DNA of 50,888 nucleotides from the IMG/VR virus record IMGVR_UViG_3300022693_004335, positions 1 through 50,888 of that record; one strand, 5' to 3'. Made by a program: the position numbers and the translations under genes. This stretch comes from a virus. Lineage: Duplodnaviria > Caudoviricetes. Under the pieces are notes generated by a model. It saw only the letters and a list, made by a program, of their open reading frames with translations. It did no database searches and was not told the DNA's origin. Positions 2,406 to 39,134 of the stretch are shown here, in pieces (the first letter of the stretch is position 1; every line of letters starts with the position of its first letter).

Positions 2406-3152
2406 TTAGAATAAAGTCGATTGGTTAGAGCCATCAAGCTCTGGATCTATCGCGGGCACCGCATTTAATATTTCAGGAGTATTGGTATCAACGCCTCGTT
2501 TGTAGATTGCATTGCTTACCGGATGATACTTCAATGCTTCATTAGTGAAACTCACATTGATTAACTCTTTAATCTGCTTTTCATTTAAACTAGAATCTAT
2601 CCAGTTCTCGGTAAACTGCTCATCTAGTATTAACGGCATTCGTTTTTTAGCGTTATGGATCTGGGCCATTATATCATTCGCTTCCATTGTCAAGATTGTA
2701 ACGGTGTACAGCTCTTCATCAATTTTATTAAAAAGCCCGGCAAAGTAGAATAGCTTTTGCTCCGGTAGGGTGATATAATAGGGTTGTTTCTTTTCAGTTT
2801 TGGTACCAGGCTTCACATACGTATGTGGCTCGAAAAAACCATCAGCTAAAATCAAGCAACGACCAGACTCCGCACTTTTCTTATACGTGTTACTTGTCCA
2901 GATATCTTCGCTTCTAGCATTATAAGTGTGATAAGGAAACTCTGAAGGAGCGCCTTGGTGAAAATCCGGTATCAGTTTCCAGTCAGCCGGCCAGATCCGT
3001 TGGGGATCATCCTGAGGAATTATATGCAATAACTTATCACCAAAAGCATTTATATGATAGTAAGGCTCGTAAACTTCCGGATAAACAAATTTGCGCTTTG
3101 AAGTTTTTACTATCTCTTCTTCTAACTTGGTTAAACTGGTTGCGTTGCACAT
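2406..3152 (-). CDS. SOS response-associated peptidase (SRAP/YedK/HMCES family)
   Basis: Catalytic Cys2 (MC start), YNARSE, CLILADGFFE and IHN...RMPLIL motifs; adjacent to umuDC. Confidence 0.92.
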   Translation of the reverse strand: MCNATSLTKLEEEIVKTSKRKFVYPEVYEPYYHINAFGDKLLHIIPQDDPQRIWPADWKLIPDFHQGAPSEFPYHTYNARSEDIWTSNTYKKSAESGRCLILADGFFEPHTYVKPGTKTEKKQPYYITLPEQKLFYFAGLFNKIDEELYTVTILTMEANDIMAQIHNAKKRMPLILDEQFTENWIDSSLNEKQIKELINVSFTNEALKYHPVSNAIYKRGVDTNTPEILNAVPAIDPELDGSNQSTLF

Positions 3153-23956: not shown

Positions 23957-23960
23957 ACAA

Positions 23961-24051
23961 GTGGCGAATAGGTATCGAACCTATCTACGGCAGTCCTTCA
24001 ATAATTAGACTTCCTGTTTTTTATCACTGTACCTACTGTGAGTATCGCCAC
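23961..24051 (-). ncRNA. tRNA-like element without a canonical anticodon arm
   Basis: Acceptor GTGGCGA/TCGCCAC, D arm TCAC-AGTAGGTACA-GTGA, T arm ATAGG-TTCGATA-CCTAT. Confidence 0.65.
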
Positions 24052-28057: not shown

Positions 28058-28192
28058 GAGCAAGTGGCGGAATTGGTAGACGCTATCTACTCCGAGGAAT
28101 GATAAGTTCGCGCGATAGTTCTAAAGAAGTAAATCCTCGCGGTGCGTTTTGCACAGTAGGGGATTGTGCAGGTTCGAACCCTGCCTTGCTCA
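28058..28192 (+). ncRNA. tRNA-Leu-like element with expanded anticodon region (135 nt)
   Basis: Acceptor GAGCAAG/CTTGCTC-A, D arm GCG-GAATTGGTAGA-CGC, T arm GCAGG-TTCGAAC-CCTGC. Confidence 0.75.
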
Positions 28193-32659: not shown

Positions 32660-34180
32660 CTATGATCCAAAGTTTAATCCTTTGGGTTTTGTTGGTTTTG
32701 AGACAGTCGTTGGTACAACCAGTTCAAATATTTCTCGCATCATAAACGGGTCTAGTAAATCGGTACTCTCCCCATTGAGATACTTTTGTTTCATTTCTGC
32801 TTTTGGAATTAAAGCTTCTGGCTCTTCATCCAATTTTTTCTTTTTCTTTATCGCTTTACGTTCAGCCATCATTCGTTGACGAACGGTTTGCTTATCATCA
32901 AACATCTTATTCGCCACTTGAGGCATCACCCAAACTTCATTCTTTGCAACACGCTCACCGCTCAGGATGAAACATTGCGTTTTCAGATTCTTAAACTTTC
33001 TCCCGTCTTTCGTGTCGCGTGGTTTACTTCCGTTATCAAATGGAATCGAATTAGGAATGAATGCGTTGTTAGTCCCTCCGATAAACGCTCCTACTCCATT
33101 GGCATCATAAGCCACATTACGGTTAGGTACTCCGTGTTTCTCCTGCATTGCTATAATAGCATCGGTGACGTCTTTACCGGTGGACTTTTCAATAATGCTC
33201 ACATCAGTAATCCTGAAATCATCCCATACGTAAATGATAAGCTTATCCTGACCGCTCATTGCGACATCGACTGTTATGTATTTCTTACCGCCTTTTACAA
33301 AATTGTTAGTGAACACATCTTTAAAAGCATTGTAGTCATAGACATCTGCCGGATTGATTGAAACCTTCCAGTTTCCGTCAAGCAATTGGCGTTTAGAATC
33401 CTCATCTTGAGAAGCTAGGTTTGCCAGGTACTCAGGGTTATTTTTTAGAAGCTCCTTATTCTGGTAAACAGAACCGCCTATAAATGTGATTGATTTGACA
33501 AAGTGTTTGGCATCTATCCCTGAAGCTTCCACAAGTGGTTGAATAAAATATGCAGCTTTCGTTAAGCATTCTTCAACCGTATCTCCCCAGATCATTGTAT
33601 CTCCATCCTTGACAAAATATCTGACTACTCCTTGTCTTTCCGGAATCGGAAAACCATCTTCCCCAATCCACCAGCTTATCAATTCATAAACCCAGCTATC
33701 AGGATCCGGGTTACAAGTGGCCCTAACACAAGGTTTAATCTTACTGTTTGAACGGTTACGCGACAATAAATAAAAGAACGTCTGTTTTGAAAAGTGTGTT
33801 AACTCATCAAAACCTATAAATGGAATCTGTGACCCCTGCCAGCTCGTTACGTTTTTCTCGTGCTCTAAATGCGAGAACTTAATCTTTGCACCGCTATCAA
33901 ACTTCCACTGCAACTCAGTTTTATTTGATATCGCCCCGGCTAATGGATAAAGTTTATTGCTTTCATCCCACAAACCTCCTTGTGCTTTAATCTGGGTTGT
34001 AAGCCTTCTAAAAATTACAGCCCCGAAGTCTGGATCATCTACATCTCTAAGCGGATCAAGTAAAAGACAAAAAGTTTTACCAGCACCTGCGGCTCCTCCT
34101 CCAATCACGATATCTGCAGGACTAGCCAAAGCCATCATCTGATAACCTTCTTGCGGTCTAATCCTTTTTACTTCTCCCAT
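32660..34180 (-). CDS. terL: Terminase large subunit
   Basis: Walker A GGAAGAGKT, Walker B IGFDELTHF, TCNP coupling motif, and nuclease VDVA...D. Confidence 0.95.
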   Translation of the reverse strand: MGEVKRIRPQEGYQMMALASPADIVIGGGAAGAGKTFCLLLDPLRDVDDPDFGAVIFRRLTTQIKAQGGLWDESNKLYPLAGAISNKTELQWKFDSGAKIKFSHLEHEKNVTSWQGSQIPFIGFDELTHFSKQTFFYLLSRNRSNSKIKPCVRATCNPDPDSWVYELISWWIGEDGFPIPERQGVVRYFVKDGDTMIWGDTVEECLTKAAYFIQPLVEASGIDAKHFVKSITFIGGSVYQNKELLKNNPEYLANLASQDEDSKRQLLDGNWKVSINPADVYDYNAFKDVFTNNFVKGGKKYITVDVAMSGQDKLIIYVWDDFRITDVSIIEKSTGKDVTDAIIAMQEKHGVPNRNVAYDANGVGAFIGGTNNAFIPNSIPFDNGSKPRDTKDGRKFKNLKTQCFILSGERVAKNEVWVMPQVANKMFDDKQTVRQRMMAERKAIKKKKKLDEEPEALIPKAEMKQKYLNGESTDLLDPFMMREIFELVVPTTVSKPTKPKGLNFGS

Positions 34181-34682
34181 TGTTTGGTATTTCAAACATT
34201 GTGATGTTAGTTGATTTCTGAGTGTTGTCTTTTTCGTAGAAACCAGTGTGTTTGTGTATCATTTCCATTGCTTTCTCCTTGCTAACAAATGATAACTCTA
34301 CAAAAGTTTCAGTAACAACCTTATCCCCGTCCTTGTATGATTTTGAGGTCAGCTTATACTTGCTGATCAACCTTCTCATTTCTTCTGGTAATTCCTTTAT
34401 TTGCTCAGGGCTCAAAAGAATAGTTTCAGTTATATCCGAATATGCCCAATTCTCTAATTCTTCAAGTAGAACCTCATGTGTTGTCCTGAGTTTCTTCTTA
34501 GCTTCGTTCTGCTTTTCTTTTATATAGCCTTTAACCTCTGGTATTCTCTGGATTTTAGAAAAGCTGTCATCTGCTCTTTTAGCCTTTGGATAAAGCGTTC
34601 TATAAGCCTCTGCTCCGTTAAATCCATTAACGAACCATTGGTCTATAACTGCTTTATATTTTTCAAAGGTTTTTTTAGTCAT
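34158..34682 (-). CDS. terS: Terminase small subunit
   Basis: FNGAEAY HTH and KEKAMEMI.KH.GFY motif; upstream of terL. Confidence 0.85.
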   Translation of the reverse strand: MTKKTFEKYKAVIDQWFVNGFNGAEAYRTLYPKAKRADDSFSKIQRIPEVKGYIKEKQNEAKKKLRTTHEVLLEELENWAYSDITETILLSPEQIKELPEEMRRLISKYKLTSKSYKDGDKVVTETFVELSFVSKEKAMEMIHKHTGFYEKDNTQKSTNITMFEIPNNGRSKKD

Positions 34683-34939
34683 TATCTAAATCTTTCGCCT
34701 CTGGTCCACAAATAACCAATGAAGGAATCTATTTTTTGAATTGCTGTTCTTACTCTGTGTCTGAATCCTGGTCTGTGATATGACAGAAACAGAAAATCTT
34801 CTTCTTCGTCTTTTTCAATCACAATCAAAATAGCCCCAGCCATATCATGATCTTTTACGATATCAGCTAACTTCTTCAAGACAGGATTATCTCTTTGAGT
34901 ATCTGGATAGCTTTTTATGTGATTGAGTTTGCTCATCAT
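34682..34939 (-). CDS. Hypothetical protein
   Basis: 85 aa, translationally coupled to its neighbours. Confidence 0.65.
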   Translation of the reverse strand: MMSKLNHIKSYPDTQRDNPVLKKLADIVKDHDMAGAILIVIEKDEEEDFLFLSYHRPGFRHRVRTAIQKIDSFIGYLWTRGERFR

Positions 34940-35214
34940 TCATCCATTAATTTAGATAGGACTGGATAGCACTTTCTAATGATTTCCTTGTCGCTCACTT
35001 CAACCGCTCCTAACTCAACAGCTTTTTGTTTCATCCCTTTTGAAACATCGTAATGAGGATGATTCTTTTTGTTTTGAAACCATTTCCGATTAACTCCAAT
35101 AGCATCTGCCATTTTGTGAAGTGATTCAATATCTGCACTTGCCATATGACTCATAAGCATCCTTCCATAAGGATATTCTCTTCTGCCTACGTAAACAGTT
35201 TTATCTAAGCTCAT
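34936..35214 (-). CDS. DUF4031-like protein
   Basis: MSHM...LH.MA..IG..RKWFQ...HPHYDV...A...GA motif. Confidence 0.8.
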   Translation of the reverse strand: MSLDKTVYVGRREYPYGRMLMSHMASADIESLHKMADAIGVNRKWFQNKKNHPHYDVSKGMKQKAVELGAVEVSDKEIIRKCYPVLSKLMDE

Positions 35215-35229
35215 AATTCAATTATTTCG

Positions 35230-35326
35230 GAAAGAGGGAAGGAATCGAACCTTCAAAGAACAGCTACTCGCGTATAGCTTATTGTTCTGCCAGTATCTGG
35301 TGCGATCGCCTATTCGCAGCCTCTCT
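35230..35326 (-). ncRNA. tRNA-like element with collapsed anticodon arm and long extra arm
   Basis: Acceptor AGAGAGG/CCTCTTT, D arm GCGA-ATAGGCGA-TCGC, mini hairpin CCAG-ATA-CTGG, T arm GAAGG-TTCGATT-CCTTC. Confidence 0.65.
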
Positions 35327-35463
35327 CATTTTGCAGTTGCTTTTTACTGCCAAGCCAGTCTTGTGATAATTTGCCGGGTTGCATATACTCTCAACCAAAT
35401 ACCCTAAGCTTTGAATCAATCATTATCACGGCCACGATTAGCGACAACTAAGCGTCAAAAATG

Positions 35464-35793
35464 CTATTTGGTTGACTGGTTCTGTTTTATTGTCACGTCA
35501 AGTTGTGCAGCCATAAGCGCACCTGACTTTTCAAATTCTCTTTGGCGGTTGTCTGGGGTTGGGTTCCAAAATTCTTGATGCCACGGCCAAAATTCTTCTC
35601 TACGCCAATCTGTATCATTCATTGCGTATGCTAATGACGCGGAAGCTAATTCCTCATTCTCGTAATAGGTTTCAAGATCCCTTTCAACATCATAACCCTT
35701 CACTTCTTTTTGTCTTGCTCGCTCTTTGCATATTGCAGCACACCCGGGACCGAACTCCTTTTCTATTTCCTGAAGTAGTTGCTCTCTATTCAT
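35464..35793 (-). CDS. Hypothetical phage protein
   Basis: ERARQ...GY...D...ELA and WPW...W.P motifs. Confidence 0.7.
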   Translation of the reverse strand: MNREQLLQEIEKEFGPGCAAICKERARQKEVKGYDVERDLETYYENEELASASLAYAMNDTDWRREEFWPWHQEFWNPTPDNRQREFEKSGALMAAQLDVTIKQNQSTK

Positions 35794-35950
35794 TGTCCTT
35801 TTCCTTTTTAGCCTTCGGCTTTATCTCAACTCCCTTTCCAGCGTTTATGATTTCCTCTCCACGCTCTTTGGTTCTCTCGATTGTGGTTTTTGGGAGAATG
35901 GTTTCTCCGGTGATCTTATCGATGAACTTTTCAGTGACTTTTATCTTCAT
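35786..35950 (-). CDS. 54-aa hypothetical protein (not in ORF track)
   Basis: MKIKVTEKFIDKITGETILPKTTIERTKERGEEIINAGKGVEIK... Confidence 0.55.
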   Translation of the reverse strand: MKIKVTEKFIDKITGETILPKTTIERTKERGEEIINAGKGVEIKPKAKKEKDNE

Positions 35951-36101
35951 ATCTCGAATTTTTAATTATCTGATAATCAATATTTATGTCTCACTCTCTC
36001 ACAGGGTGGAGACAATCATTTCCTAATCAATATCAAGTGCCACGCTCCTGCCGCGATTCCTCCGCAAACTATTCCTGCGGCTACTATGGTTAATACTGCG
36101 C

Positions 36102-36434
36102 TCATACTGCATCCATTTCGTAAACTTCATACTTGGCTATCTGAGCATCCATCCAAGCGTAATCAAAAGAAACTCCGTTGAGTTCAAGGAAATCTCTATG
36201 CTTTCTAAACTGTTCTGCGGTAGTGTGCTTCTTGTCTCCAAGTTCTAAATGCTCAGCTCTTGTCTGGGCCATTAAGTTTTCGATTCGGTCTAGGCTTCGG
36301 TCTGGATTTCCTCCAGCACCGCGGCAAATGATATGGCAAACATCAATTGCTCTTTGTCCGCTGATCTCGCTAGGAATAAAATCAGTGTCAGAGTAGCCCA
36401 AGGCTTGCATATAGATCTTTGTATGAGGCTTCAT
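36102..36434 (-). CDS. HNH-like protein (degenerate)
   Basis: DVCHI..RG.GG...NLMA..R..H pattern, upstream of the packaging genes. Confidence 0.55.
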   Translation of the reverse strand: MKPHTKIYMQALGYSDTDFIPSEISGQRAIDVCHIICRGAGGNPDRSLDRIENLMAQTRAEHLELGDKKHTTAEQFRKHRDFLELNGVSFDYAWMDAQIAKYEVYEMDAV

Positions 36435-36574
36435 TTCCCTATTCCCTTTAGTTTCTCCAACCGCTCGCGGTATGGTTGCTTTGCTTTCTCACTTGCGTTT
36501 CCTAGAATCATATTCTCGTGGCTTTTAATTGCCTTATCGAGATTGATTACCGTTTCGCATTTTGAGATTTTCAT
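36431..36574 (-). CDS. 47-aa hypothetical protein (not in ORF track)
   Basis: MKISKCETVINLDKAIKSH...PYRERLEKLKGIGK; ATGA-coupled to the next gene. Confidence 0.55.
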   Translation of the reverse strand: MKISKCETVINLDKAIKSHENMILGNASEKAKQPYRERLEKLKGIGK

Positions 36575-36730
36575 TTTAAACTTTTTAAAAACCCAGAGGC
36601 TTGATTTTTGAATTACTCAAGCCTTATCTGGGTTTATACACGCTTATTGACTATTGGGCGTTTCCGCAGAATAATCGTCATCGTATTTTACCCTTCTCCT
36701 GTGTTCGTCAACTCAGAGGTTGGATTTCCG

Positions 36731-36804
36731 TAGCGGGAGCTGGATTCGAACCAGCGGCCTCCGGGTTATGGGCCCGGCGAGCTGACCATCTGCTCTATCC
36801 CACG
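36731..36804 (-). tRNA. tRNA-Met (CAT), initiator type
   Basis: Full cloverleaf with a 1:72 mismatch, anticodon stem CCGGG/CCCGG with three G-C pairs, loop CC-CAT-AA, T loop TTCGAAT; no encoded CCA. Confidence 0.93.
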
Positions 36805-36808
36805 ATTT

Positions 36809-36837
36809 AAAAAGCCTCACCTACTAAGCGAGGCTTT
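36809..36837 (-). terminator. Terminator-like hairpin immediately 5' of the tRNA
   Basis: Minus strand AAAGCCTC-loop-GAGGCTTTTT. Confidence 0.6.
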
Positions 36838-36853
36838 CAATTTTTAATATGTG

Positions 36854-37177
36854 CTATTCATTGCTGCAATTGAGCCCGTCTCTTGGGGACCTATAAACTT
36901 CTGGGGTGAAGGCTACTGCATAGGATTGAACAAGAGTTGATTTTAATTTCTCGGCTTTTTCAAAATCATTAATCACTGGAGTTAAATCAACTGGTTCTTT
37001 TTTTAAATTCACTTGCAATTCCTGAGAAACAGAAACAGCGGCTACCACTTGCACAGCCTGATCCTTATGGATTTCAGTTGCGCTTGAATTCTCGCTCAGG
37101 TCAGTTGTAGTATTACTGAATCCCGTGAAGCTGATCATACAGACCAACAACATCAATAAGCTAGCTATCGCTTTCAT
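36854..37177 (-). CDS. Secreted hypothetical protein
   Basis: Signal peptide MKAIASLLMLLVCMISFTGFS. Confidence 0.65.
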   Translation of the reverse strand: MKAIASLLMLLVCMISFTGFSNTTTDLSENSSATEIHKDQAVQVVAAVSVSQELQVNLKKEPVDLTPVINDFEKAEKLKSTLVQSYAVAFTPEVYRSPRDGLNCSNE

Positions 37178-37415
37178 ATAATCTTAATTGCCAGTTGGCA
37201 GAAATGTAAAATCGAAAGGACATAAAATGCCCGTAAAGGAATATTGAAGGCGTTAGCCTAATCGGAAAATTGGTAAGTGGTATTCTTGAAAATTGTTGCC
37301 TGATTAACAGGACTTAGGAAGATTGGTAAGGAGTATGCAAGATGCGAAAACCTTGTGATTATTCCTAGTTTTTAGGCTTAAAAGTTTTCGATTAATTTAA
37401 TGTTTCAAAATAGCA

Positions 37416-39134
37416 TTAAGCGGCTTCCGAAATAGTTCCCTTATATTTTTTCACTGCTTTATTATGCGCTTCAAATAGTGCTTTAGCGGTTTTCACTTCA
37501 ACACTATTACCGATGAATTTCTTTTGATCAGTTTGATTTCCTACAAGTTGATAGTCTGCCGGAAAGCCTTGTATTTGTAATAGTTCTTTAACCAGTAGCA
37601 TTCGCATTTTTATATCTGTGATACCGTAAGCAGCCATAAACTTTTTGATCTTCACCATCGTTGGAGTATCGCAATCATAGACAGGAATTGCAAATCCTTT
37701 ACCTTGTTCACAGATAACTAAACCAAGTGGCTTTTTATCTTGCCGGGCAATGATCACCGGGCAAGGTTTTTCAACTGAGTTACCAGGATTCTTGAATTGT
37801 GGATTGAATAAGAAATGCTCAGCTTCAACCAAGTTATGCTTGTCGTTATTTACGATGGTTGCTGCAGGACCGGTCACAGGGCGAATAAAACCACCACCAG
37901 AATAATTGAGCATTAAGTAATTCACTTTAGCAAACTTTGGATTTTGTGTAATCGTACCAAGTGGTTGATCAACCTTAGAAGGTTTGCTGTTTCCATATTG
38001 CTGATCAATAAATGTGGTTTCAACCTTGCTGAATCGATCTTTGGTTGTTACTGTTGGGCACGGTTCATCTGTGCTGTGCGCGTGACCGTTGCCATAATAC
38101 GATTGCAAGAATGAAGCATTTACCATTCCCAGTCTGCTTTGAGCGGCAACTGTAGGACAAGGATCTTCAATTGAAGGCGGCACGTGCTTTCCGTTTTTTG
38201 ATACTGAATTGTATTTTAGAATAAAATCACAGTTAACAATTGCCTGACCATCTTTGCACTTCACAGTACCGGCGGGACCTTCAACAGAAATCACTTTTCC
38301 CATTGGTCTTCCGGAATAGTATTTCTTGATAAAGCTTTCGTCACCATTAGCAACAAACTTCACGAGACCAGCGTAAATGCGTTTGAGTGTATTTTCAACA
38401 AGCGGTTTTTTACGGTTGAATATCGATTTACCTTCCGTATCAAAGTCAAGCACTTCTTTTACCGGCTTCCACTTTTTAAGAGGGTTATCGAACAAGCCTT
38501 CAGACTTTAATGGATTTTTAGTGTGCGTTTGTTCTGGCCACGCAATAGGTAGCTTACCTTTTGCAAACTGCGCAAAGAATCTATTTCGGGCAGTGTAGGC
38601 TCCAAAGTCAGCACTATTCAATTCACGCCAATCGTATCGATATCCATAAGCGCGAATAGAATCAATCCATCTTAAGTAATCCTGACCGCGCTTGCGTGAT
38701 ACCGGTTTCCCTTTTGCATCCAGCGGTCCCCAACTCATAAACTCAACCACGTTTTCAATCATCAAATAGTCAGGCTTTATCGCTTTGAGATACATATGCA
38801 AATGATCTGCAAGCGTTCTACTATCTGCCTCACGTGGTAAGCCTCCTTTTGCTTTACTGAAGTTCGTACACTCGAGACTTGCCCAAATGGTAATAATGCA
38901 ATCAGGATAAAGCTTTCTTAAGGCATCAACACGAAGCTTTAAAAACCAAACAACCTCCGGGTTTCTAATATCCTCAATAAAATGCTTGGCCTGTGGATGG
39001 TTTAAACGGTGGCTTTCTATCGCTTTTGTATCGTGATTAACGCAAGCGATTACCTTGGCGCTTCCTTTGGATAAGTGAACACCTTCGGAAGTGCCACCTG
39101 CTCCACAGAATAAGTCAATTACAAATTCTTTCAT
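37416..39134 (-). CDS. DNA (cytosine-5)-methyltransferase
   Basis: Motif I DLFCGAGG, motif IV SLECTNFS, motif VI ENV, motif VIII TARNRFF, motifs IX-X QGFP and IGNSV. Confidence 0.92.
   Translation of the reverse strand: MKEFVIDLFCGAGGTSEGVHLSKGSAKVIACVNHDTKAIESHRLNHPQAKHFIEDIRNPEVVWFLKLRVDALRKLYPDCIITIWASLECTNFSKAKGGLPREADSRTLADHLHMYLKAIKPDYLMIENVVEFMSWGPLDAKGKPVSRKRGQDYLRWIDSIRAYGYRYDWRELNSADFGAYTARNRFFAQFAKGKLPIAWPEQTHTKNPLKSEGLFDNPLKKWKPVKEVLDFDTEGKSIFNRKKPLVENTLKRIYAGLVKFVANGDESFIKKYYSGRPMGKVISVEGPAGTVKCKDGQAIVNCDFILKYNSVSKNGKHVPPSIEDPCPTVAAQSRLGMVNASFLQSYYGNGHAHSTDEPCPTVTTKDRFSKVETTFIDQQYGNSKPSKVDQPLGTITQNPKFAKVNYLMLNYSGGGFIRPVTGPAATIVNNDKHNLVEAEHFLFNPQFKNPGNSVEKPCPVIIARQDKKPLGLVICEQGKGFAIPVYDCDTPTMVKIKKFMAAYGITDIKMRMLLVKELLQIQGFPADYQLVGNQTDQKKFIGNSVEVKTAKALFEAHNKAVKKYKGTISEAA

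Follow-up and report, generated by a model that had tools for sequence, protein, structure and literature searches.

The provirus record IMGVR_UViG_3300022693_004335 of the IMG/VR collection (50,888 bp, estimated completeness 97%; the whole stretch is called the window in the following) carries on its minus strand a 97-nt tRNA-like element that has acceptor, D and T arms, and in which the anticodon arm is reduced to a hairpin of 4 bp with a 3-nt loop. The element, designated element 3, descends, according to structure-guided comparisons, from a class II tRNA-Leu gene, and its structure is, judging from the compensatory changes in its homologues, under selection and not in random decay. The same unusual architecture was retained over about 40% sequence divergence, whereas decay would break the stems. 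We tentatively interpret element 3 as a module similar to the t-elements of plant mitochondria, which would direct processing by RNase P and RNase Z in the late, packaging transcript of the phage.

Unconstrained minimum free energy (MFE) folding of window positions 35225-35332 (minus strand) gave exactly the tRNA-like shape. The fold energy of the element was -33.5 kcal/mol, compared with -24.45 ± 3.05 kcal/mol for shuffled sequences (z = -2.97), and 3 of 200 shuffles were as stable. The length is counted from position 1 to the discriminator base C35230; CCA is not encoded, as is likewise the case for the tRNA genes at the edge of the related provirus G001. Element 3 consists of the following parts:

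35230-35326, minus strand: the whole anticodon-less tRNA-like RNA (element 3), recognized from the MFE fold, covariance model matches, homologues, covariation and tRNA-Leu relatives.
35320-35326, minus strand: 5' strand of the acceptor stem, AGAGAGG, which pairs with 35231-35237 (CCUCUUU) and includes a G2-U71 wobble.
35302-35317, minus strand: D arm with the stem GCGA/UCGC and the 8-nt loop AUAGGCGA, which contains the equivalents of G18 and G19 (from the fold and the homologues).
35290-35300, minus strand: mini hairpin CCAG-AUA-CUGG (4 bp, 3-nt loop), which replaces the anticodon arm (from the fold and covariation).
35257-35288, minus strand: long extra (variable) arm of 32 nt, composed of an outer helix of 6 bp, a 4-nt bulge on the 5' side, an inner helix of 5 bp and a loop.
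35238-35254, minus strand: T arm GAAGG-UUCGAUU-CCUUC (from the fold and the motif count; helix 6 of the alignment, 100% paired).

Two linker bases connect the acceptor 5' strand to the D arm, a single base stands on either side of the mini hairpin (towards the D arm and towards the long arm), and two U residues lie between the long arm and the T arm. The tRNA register was set by the homologues, which define a 7-bp acceptor (35326-35320 with 35237-35231) followed by the discriminator C35230; the eighth pair of the window fold, G35327-C35230, was not kept in the diverged homologue L011. As in canonical tRNAs, the 7-bp acceptor is stacked on a 5-bp T stem and the T loop has the form UUCRANY. At the anticodon position all four known variants have 4 bp and a 3-nt loop and not the canonical 5 bp and 7-nt loop. 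The T-arm motif GGTTCGANNCC occurred four times in the window against an expectation of 0.14, a count reached in none of 100 shuffles, and the four sites belong to a tRNA-Met gene and to the tRNA-like elements at 23961, 28058 and 35230. No open reading frame (ORF) of at least 50 amino acids (aa) overlapped 35229-35327. The arms, including the CCAG-ATA-CTGG hairpin and the long extra arm, had already been described in the original prediction, which was made from the letters of the window; the MFE fold agrees with that description and adds the strand, which had not been named.

Homologues were sought with two covariance models. R1 was built from the window sequence alone and searched against every fetched locus, including those anchored on the downstream DUF4031 gene (7 loci), on the upstream 109-aa ORF (6 loci) and on TerL (80 loci). 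An identical copy of element 3 was found in a sister provirus (L002/L010), and the sole diverged match among the anchored loci was L011:2538-2638 (58 bits). Two more homologues were reached through DNA pattern searches, L091:2808-2907 (72 bits) and L099:2564-2662 (118 bits), the latter in an uncultured Flavobacteriaceae metagenome-assembled genome (MAG); a TARA contig contained a copy identical to that of L099. The exact and degenerate patterns returned 1, 3 and 3 stretches in viral contigs, 1 in genome contigs and 1 in metagenome contigs, the last identical to L099. The loci anchored on DUF4031 yielded element 3 in one of seven (the near-identical L002) and those anchored on the 109-aa ORF in none of six, of which L093 holds a different tRNA-like element. 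R2, built from the four element 3 sequences and run over 151 Flavobacteriaceae genomes, detected element 3 itself solely in the MAG that had supplied L099 (108 bits). The four distinct sequences thus come from two IMG/VR proviruses (including the window), one further IMG/VR contig and one Flavobacteriaceae MAG, and they represent essentially two lineages, window/L099 and L011/L091. Comparison of window positions 34000-37500 with 50,697 phage records by blastn gave matches to the tRNA-Met and to short unrelated pieces, with nothing across element 3. Rfam has no family for it, and a full-text literature search, conducted mostly at the level of the listed entries, gave no account of tRNA-Leu-like genes without an anticodon in phages of flavobacteria. 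It is a small family, undescribed in the databases and papers searched.

Selection on the structure was assessed from these four sequences in an alignment guided by a model of the same structure, in which standard pairs filled 96.2% of 132 cells (5 cells were unpaired) and 11 of 33 pairs had changed on both sides, with at least one such pair in each of the six helices. When, as a control, the 3' partners were slid by 1-3 columns, 43-52% of the cells could pair and at most one pair was doubly changed, and the covariation score was reached by none of 500 shuffles. The seven acceptor pairs (helix 1, columns 2-8) were standard in all four sequences. The D stem (helix 2) had 3-4 bp and was 80% paired, and the GG of its loop was present in every variant. 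The helix of the mini hairpin was 100% paired, with two of its four pairs changed on both sides: its stem occurred as CCAG/CUGG, CGAU/GUCG and CGAG/CUCG, and its loop was AUA in three variants and AGA in L099. Helices 4 and 5, which form the long arm, were also 100% paired, and 4 of their 11 pairs were doubly changed. Here the outer helix was either AGAACA/UGUUCU or AGUGGA/UCCACU, the bulge had the form (A/U)UAA (AUAA in the window, UUAA as the other version), and the loop varied in sequence and in length (6-7 nt, 6 in the window). In marine sequencing run X1 a variant at 35274 replaced a U-G pair in the long arm by C-G, and another variant weakened the first D-stem pair. The two lineages differ at about 40 of 100 positions, yet they share the odd architecture. 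Taking into account that all six helices are kept with compensatory changes, the claim of the original prediction that selection and not random decay shaped the element is supported for element 3; random decay of stems among homologues, which had been named as the observation that would speak against it, was not seen in the four distinct sequences.

The closest cellular relatives detected with the R2 model were leucine tRNAs. In 143 of the 151 Flavobacteriaceae genomes it matched genes of 82-88 nt at 40-48 bits, and of the best loci, 19 of which were fetched, all 19 were tRNA-Leu (16 UAA, 2 CAA and 1 GAG). In the R2 alignment the anticodon stem of tRNA-Leu corresponds to the mini hairpin and its variable arm to the outer helix of the long arm. 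L011 and L091 have U8, a tRNA-Leu-type D loop (AAUUGGUAG) and discriminator A, whereas in the window and L099 position 8 is C, the D loop is altered and the discriminator is C (C73). Since the closest cellular relatives found by a structure-aware profile are tRNA-Leu, and since the arms map one to one, we conclude that element 3 descends from a class II tRNA-Leu gene. Cellular tRNA-Leu genes of Flavobacteriaceae (e.g. L118:1502-1587, L111:1501-1586 and L106:992-1076) share with element 3 the acceptor, the D arm, the T arm, the possession of a variable arm and the lack of an encoded CCA. Relative to them, the anticodon arm has shrunk from 17 nt to 11 nt (4 bp + 3 nt) and the variable arm, which is 11-14 nt in the three cellular tRNA-Leu that were aligned, has grown to 32-33 nt; moreover, the window copy differs from cellular tRNA-Leu in C8, in C73 and in the absence of a default ARAGORN or Rfam tRNA call. 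With the anticodon loop lost, element 3 would be unable to decode.

Programs that annotate tRNA genes passed over the element. At default settings ARAGORN reported in the window only the tRNA-Met at 36730-36804 and no transfer-messenger RNA (tmRNA), and Rfam at gathering thresholds found this tRNA-Met and the element at 28058-28192. Even a permissive Rfam scan (E<=10) of positions 34900-37000 gave no RF00005 match on element 3 (the gathering threshold is 29 bits), so by these tools it is not a canonical tRNA. Solely when introns were permitted and the threshold was reduced to 90% did ARAGORN call a tRNA-Thr(agt) there, with a 26-nt intron. This model was ruled out, as its positions were not conserved and none of the four copies (window, L011, L091 and L099) has a 7-nt loop; Rfam did not give intron matches (group I or others) at element 3 either. 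The long arm was rejected as a genuine anticodon arm, its 6-7-nt loop being different across the lineages and lacking a U33-like position. Membership among tmRNAs or YrlA RNAs was similarly discarded, there being no Rfam match at the gathering threshold and merely a tmRNA fragment of 17 nt and 10.7 bits on the T arm. Parts of the paper on allo-tRNAs (PMC5389517) give their acceptor/T configuration as 8/4 or 9/3, in which a lengthened acceptor is balanced by a shortened T stem and the anticodon arm is functional; in element 3 the T stem has 5 bp in all four sequences, the eighth acceptor pair is absent in L011, and there is no anticodon loop.

The neighbouring ORFs are all on the minus strand, co-oriented with element 3, in the order C5 DNA methyltransferase, small ORFs, tRNA-Met, 109-aa ORF, element 3, DUF4031 gene, 85-aa ORF, TerS, TerL and portal. 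The features adjoining element 3 are:

34936-35214, minus strand: DUF4031 gene of 92 aa, the first ORF downstream, with its ATG 15 nt past the discriminator.
35464-35793, minus strand: upstream ORF of 109 aa without a Pfam match, co-oriented and optional in related marine contigs.
35328-35458, minus strand: conserved structured leader with hairpin H1, helix H2, hairpin H3 and an A-rich linker (from the alignment and the consensus fold).

The leader occupies the 131 nt between the 109-aa ORF and element 3 and was conserved in the window, L099, L093 and L011. The consensus fold of these four sequences contains 31 pairs, 7 of which had changed on both sides. Hairpin H1 (35455-35434) was invariant in all four and includes an invariant 21-mer; the long-range helix H2 (35433-35422 with 35370-35353) has four doubly compensated pairs; and H3 (35350-35333), next to which lies the A-rich linker, has two. 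As RNA it could be a small RNA or the leader of the late operon; as DNA it could be a terminase-binding (cos/pac) region.

Downstream of the tRNA-like elements the distance to the next gene was found to be narrow in range. An ORF of at least 80 aa begins 13-15 nt past the discriminator in four of the seven tRNA-like elements examined: 15 nt in the window (92 aa) and in L099 (99 aa), 13 nt in L093 (TerS) and 14 nt at the element at 28058 (80 aa). In L011 just a 30-aa ORF follows, 16 nt past element 3. The stretch TTGAATTATG is common to the window, L099 and L093 despite their differing downstream genes.

The slot behind the conserved leader was variable. It contained element 3 in the window, L099 and L011, a different tRNA-like element in L093, and no such element in a relative from run X2. 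In the latter marine contig, the flanks of which are 95-99% identical to the window, positions 35225-35351 (H3 and element 3) are replaced by 22 nt that form an H3-like 5-bp hairpin followed by a run of T, resembling a terminator. Contigs of runs X1 and X6 skip 35476-35788, i.e. the 109-aa ORF, with 6 nt in its place. The sequencing runs were examined as assembled contigs.

The observations on fold, descent and position can be combined in the following scheme. Element 3, carried by a temperate phage of marine Flavobacteriaceae, has retained as a class II tRNA-Leu descendant those parts that the tRNA-maturation enzymes of the host read, namely the acceptor (7 bp) stacked on the T stem (5 bp), together with the T loop and the GG elbow of the D loop. 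RNase P, RNase Z and the CCA-adding enzyme recognize the 12-bp acceptor/T stack and the elbow formed by the T loop and the D loop. Situated in the untranslated leader of the packaging (late) block, element 3 is presumably co-transcribed with it. A cut by RNase P at the 5' end (about 35326/35327) would free the structured upstream leader, and a cut by RNase Z past the discriminator (35230/35229) would separate the element from the downstream mRNA. The RNase Z route is proposed because CCA is not encoded; CCA-less precursors are the natural substrates of this enzyme. The downstream mRNA would be left with a short, A/U-rich leader of 13-16 nt, fit for Shine-Dalgarno-independent initiation, and Bacteroidota do initiate translation without Shine-Dalgarno pairing. 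A stable tRNA-shaped RNA would be set free as by-product, and the expression of the packaging genes may be affected. The position of the element (co-oriented, behind a conserved leader and with an ORF start 13-15 nt downstream) favours such RNase P/Z processing. Element 3 shares with the t-elements a conserved T arm, a non-canonical tRNA-like fold and a location within a co-oriented coding unit. By this analogy we suggest that element 3 is a t-element-like RNase P/RNase Z processing module of the late/packaging transcript, a suggestion whose chance of being correct we would place somewhat short of even.

Several observations weigh against this interpretation. The element is rare: it was present in two of the 80 TerL-anchored loci (L010, with an identical copy, and L011), and the other 150 of the 151 Flavobacteriaceae genomes lacked it in the R2 search. 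It is also optional and dispensable, as the X2 relative demonstrates. No ORF follows closely behind the tRNA-like elements of L091 and L130, the latter a Flavobacteriaceae genome locus. The only RNA data, one metatranscriptome contig (152 nt, RNA run X20), cover 35352-35497 in the leader and stop short of element 3; they may reflect assembly branching or DNA carry-over. The 32-nt extra arm and the 4-bp hairpin exceed the needs of a bare processing signal, and the fact that both were kept with compensatory changes over about 40% divergence hints at a function of their own. Finally, the evidence base is four sequences in essentially two lineages, aligned under guidance of the structure in question.

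One rival explanation is an RNA that works in trans. Host RNase P, RNase Z and the CCA-adding enzyme would then mature a stable, non-decoding tRNA-shaped RNA, which might divert or titrate, as a decoy or sponge, host factors that recognize the acceptor end, the elbow or the long variable arm of class II tRNAs (e.g. toxins of abortive-infection systems that modify tRNAs), or might present the long arm as a scaffold. Compensatory maintenance of the mini hairpin and of the long arm with its (A/U)UAA bulge, which is more than a cutting signal requires, the behaviour of the element as an accessory cassette (present or absent in near-identical phages, and exchanged behind the same leader in L093) and the occurrence of several more aberrant tRNA-shaped genes within the same phage group (see below) all speak for such a mimic. 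Since the element offers no anticodon loop, it is unlikely to be a decoy for anticodon nucleases; proteins that bind the acceptor end or the elbow may be candidate targets of a decoy. Taking into account, however, that a target or partner is not known, that pairs 1-72 and 2-71, the discriminator (C, C, A, A) and the long-arm loop all vary among the four variants without an obvious conserved binding surface beyond the generic tRNA core, and that the tight, repeated ORF spacing would be superfluous for a free RNA, we regard the tRNA mimic as possible but rather doubtful. A special case of a trans-acting RNA, in which host leucyl-tRNA synthetase (LeuRS) charges the element and the leucine-accepting, non-decoding product sequesters LeuRS or EF-Tu, or passes its leucine on to a non-ribosomal transferase, appears still more improbable. 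LeuRS does not read the anticodon, and the tRNA-Leu ancestry is in favour of charging, as is the preservation of the AAUUGGUAG D loop, U8 and discriminator A in L011 and L091 and equally in the L093 element, the element at 28058 and L130. In contrast, C stands at both the discriminator and position 8 of the window and L099 copies, and their D loop is changed; because A73 is a major LeuRS identity element, charging would not be a conserved property of the family. Besides, the ten neighbouring ORFs that were scanned did not include an aminoacyl-transferase gene.

An ATG 13-16 nt away, a common TTGAATTATG junction and a stable, compact fold would also suit a structural module that acts in cis without being cleaved, by insulating the start codon, setting a standby site or shielding the 5' part of the mRNA from decay. 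For such purposes any stable hairpin would suffice, the T loop, the GG of the D loop and the exact 7/5 stack would be left unexplained, and the X2-type relative copes with a 5-bp hairpin; we therefore assign the uncleaved module a low probability. A similarly low one is given to a functionless tRNA pseudogene between gene modules, whose stems persist merely through recent divergence. It would account for the optional and rare occurrence and for the loss of U8 and A73 in the window copy, and phage tRNA genes are commonly situated at module junctions. It is opposed by the 4-bp/3-nt hairpin and the bulged 32-nt arm, common to two lineages that differ at about 40 of 100 positions, by 11 doubly changed pairs with merely 5 of 132 cells unpaired, and by the X1 variant at 35274, which changes U-G to C-G. 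The least probable explanation, in our estimate a very remote one, is a DNA-level site (pac/cos, attachment or recombination) that resembles a tRNA gene by chance. Element 3 does lie just upstream of the terminase genes, where cos/pac sites are often located, and the invariant 21-mer of the leader and the concerted change of the H2 arms can be read as terminase-binding repeats. Compensatory changes across six nested cloverleaf helices, with G-U pairs, nevertheless point to RNA, the element can be absent while leader and packaging genes remain, and the attachment-site remnant at the edge of the related provirus G001 consists of the 3' end of a tRNA-Lys and not of element 3.

The original prediction had spoken of a repeated theme of three tRNA-like elements under selection. 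The part of this claim that stood is the presence of two further aberrant tRNA-shaped elements in the window, to which more can be added from relatives:

28058-28192, plus strand: tRNA-Leu-like element of 135 nt with 77 nt in place of the anticodon arm (Rfam tRNA, 36 bits).
23960-24051, minus strand: tRNA-shaped fold of 91 nt with a poor anticodon region, a GC-rich hairpin behind it and no ORF.
L093:3103-3219: tRNA-Leu-like element of 117 nt with 58 nt between the D and T arms (Rfam tRNA, 35 bits).

Evidence of selection was obtained for element 3 alone: the elements at 23961 and 28058 had no homologue in the four relatives searched. Neither had a DNA match in G001-G004, where solely the ORF just upstream of 28058 was matched, in G004; neither the sister provirus G003 nor G001, G002 or G004 contained the element at 28058, and an RF00005 scan of G001-G003 revealed no counterpart of either element. 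The three elements had also been called sequence-unrelated, which needs correction, since element 3 and the element at 28058 both have a tRNA-Leu-type scaffold and the best cellular relatives of the element 3 model are tRNA-Leu. The L093 element, which like that at 28058 has a tRNA-Leu-type D arm, is a different element from element 3; it stands behind the same leader and was not called by ARAGORN.

Other structured elements were noticed in the relatives. L099:879-963 (identical to L100:4167-4251) is an aberrant tRNA of 85 nt with a 2-nt anticodon (ARAGORN 'tRNA-???'); it occupies the place of the window tRNA-Met, behind a near-identical terminator-like hairpin. L130:594-702 (G079:C9:41593-41701) is a tRNA-Leu-like gene of 109 nt with a defective anticodon region, a 34-nt variable arm and a small hairpin in front, and was not called by ARAGORN. 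In L091:2796-3030 a second structured element (2947-3030) follows element 3, with a closing stem of 9 bp and a perfect T-arm-like hairpin; both L091 elements are preceded by the repeat TGGCAGATGATAA, and the 271-nt region folds with z = -3.8. L106:649-1076, at the edge of provirus G001, contains two tRNA-Lys(UUU) genes and one tRNA-Leu(GAG), and the repeated tRNA-Lys 3' end at L106:898-913 looks like an attachment-site duplication from integration into tRNA-Lys.

A more general proposal is that Flavobacteriaceae phages keep a class of non-decoding, tRNA-Leu-derived 'scaffold tRNAs' that are matured by the host and work in trans. The replaced anticodon limb and the enlarged variable arm would be the working part, with cargo differing from phage to phage in the same leader slot, and possible roles would be those of a decoy for toxins or sensors of defence systems that recognize the acceptor end, the elbow or the long variable arm of class II tRNAs, or of a natural tRNA scaffold that presents a regulatory hairpin. 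We consider this proposal unlikely on present evidence, slightly more so than the mimic discussed above.

Among known systems the t-elements of plant mitochondria come closest to the processing module that we favour. Parts of the paper of Forner et al. (2007; PMC1920247) describe them as tRNA-like folds of non-canonical form whose T arm, GGTTCRANYCC, is conserved; they are proposed, and have partly been shown, to direct the RNase P/Z cuts that make the 5' and 3' ends of mRNAs; the excised t-element can persist as a small RNA. As far as this source goes, the likeness to element 3 is a tRNA-like fold with conserved T arm inside a protein-coding transcription unit, with t-elements adjoining mRNA ends, and the difference is that of an organelle with mapped ends versus a phage element known here from sequence (PMC1920247). 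Element 3 differs further from t-elements by its full D arm, its long covarying extra arm and its origin from class II tRNA-Leu.

Similar arrangements exist in eukaryotes. In mascRNA/MALAT1 and in the tRNA-like-miRNA units of murine gammaherpesvirus 68 (MHV68), tRNA-like structures within longer transcripts are cut by RNase P and RNase Z, which sets the end of the adjoining RNA and frees a tRNA-like RNA that has a CCA tail and is not aminoacylated. Unlike element 3, to which they have no sequence relation, these are eukaryotic nuclear or viral transcripts of polymerase II/III, whereas the neighbour of element 3 is a bacterial-type polycistronic mRNA. YrlA and the tRNA-like domain of tmRNA resemble element 3 in that the acceptor, T arm and D-loop elbow are kept and the anticodon arm is replaced. 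They differ from it, tmRNA by its tag reading frame and pseudoknots, and YrlA, according to parts of its description, by a topology in which the RNA ends lie in the Ro-binding helix (PMC4201824).

If the processing interpretation is true, element 3 would be a phage counterpart of the organellar 'tRNA punctuation / t-element' principle, with a disarmed tRNA gene serving the phage to cut its late transcript and to set the 5' end of its packaging mRNAs. If, instead, the RNA acts in trans, element 3 would represent an accessory RNA of phages of a new kind. The natural presence/absence variants provide a ready-made experiment. Either way, a conserved, selected RNA gene of marine flavobacterial phages escapes the standard tools for tRNAs and RNA families, and anticodon-less 'tRNA-like' genes of phages should therefore not be dismissed as pseudogenes.

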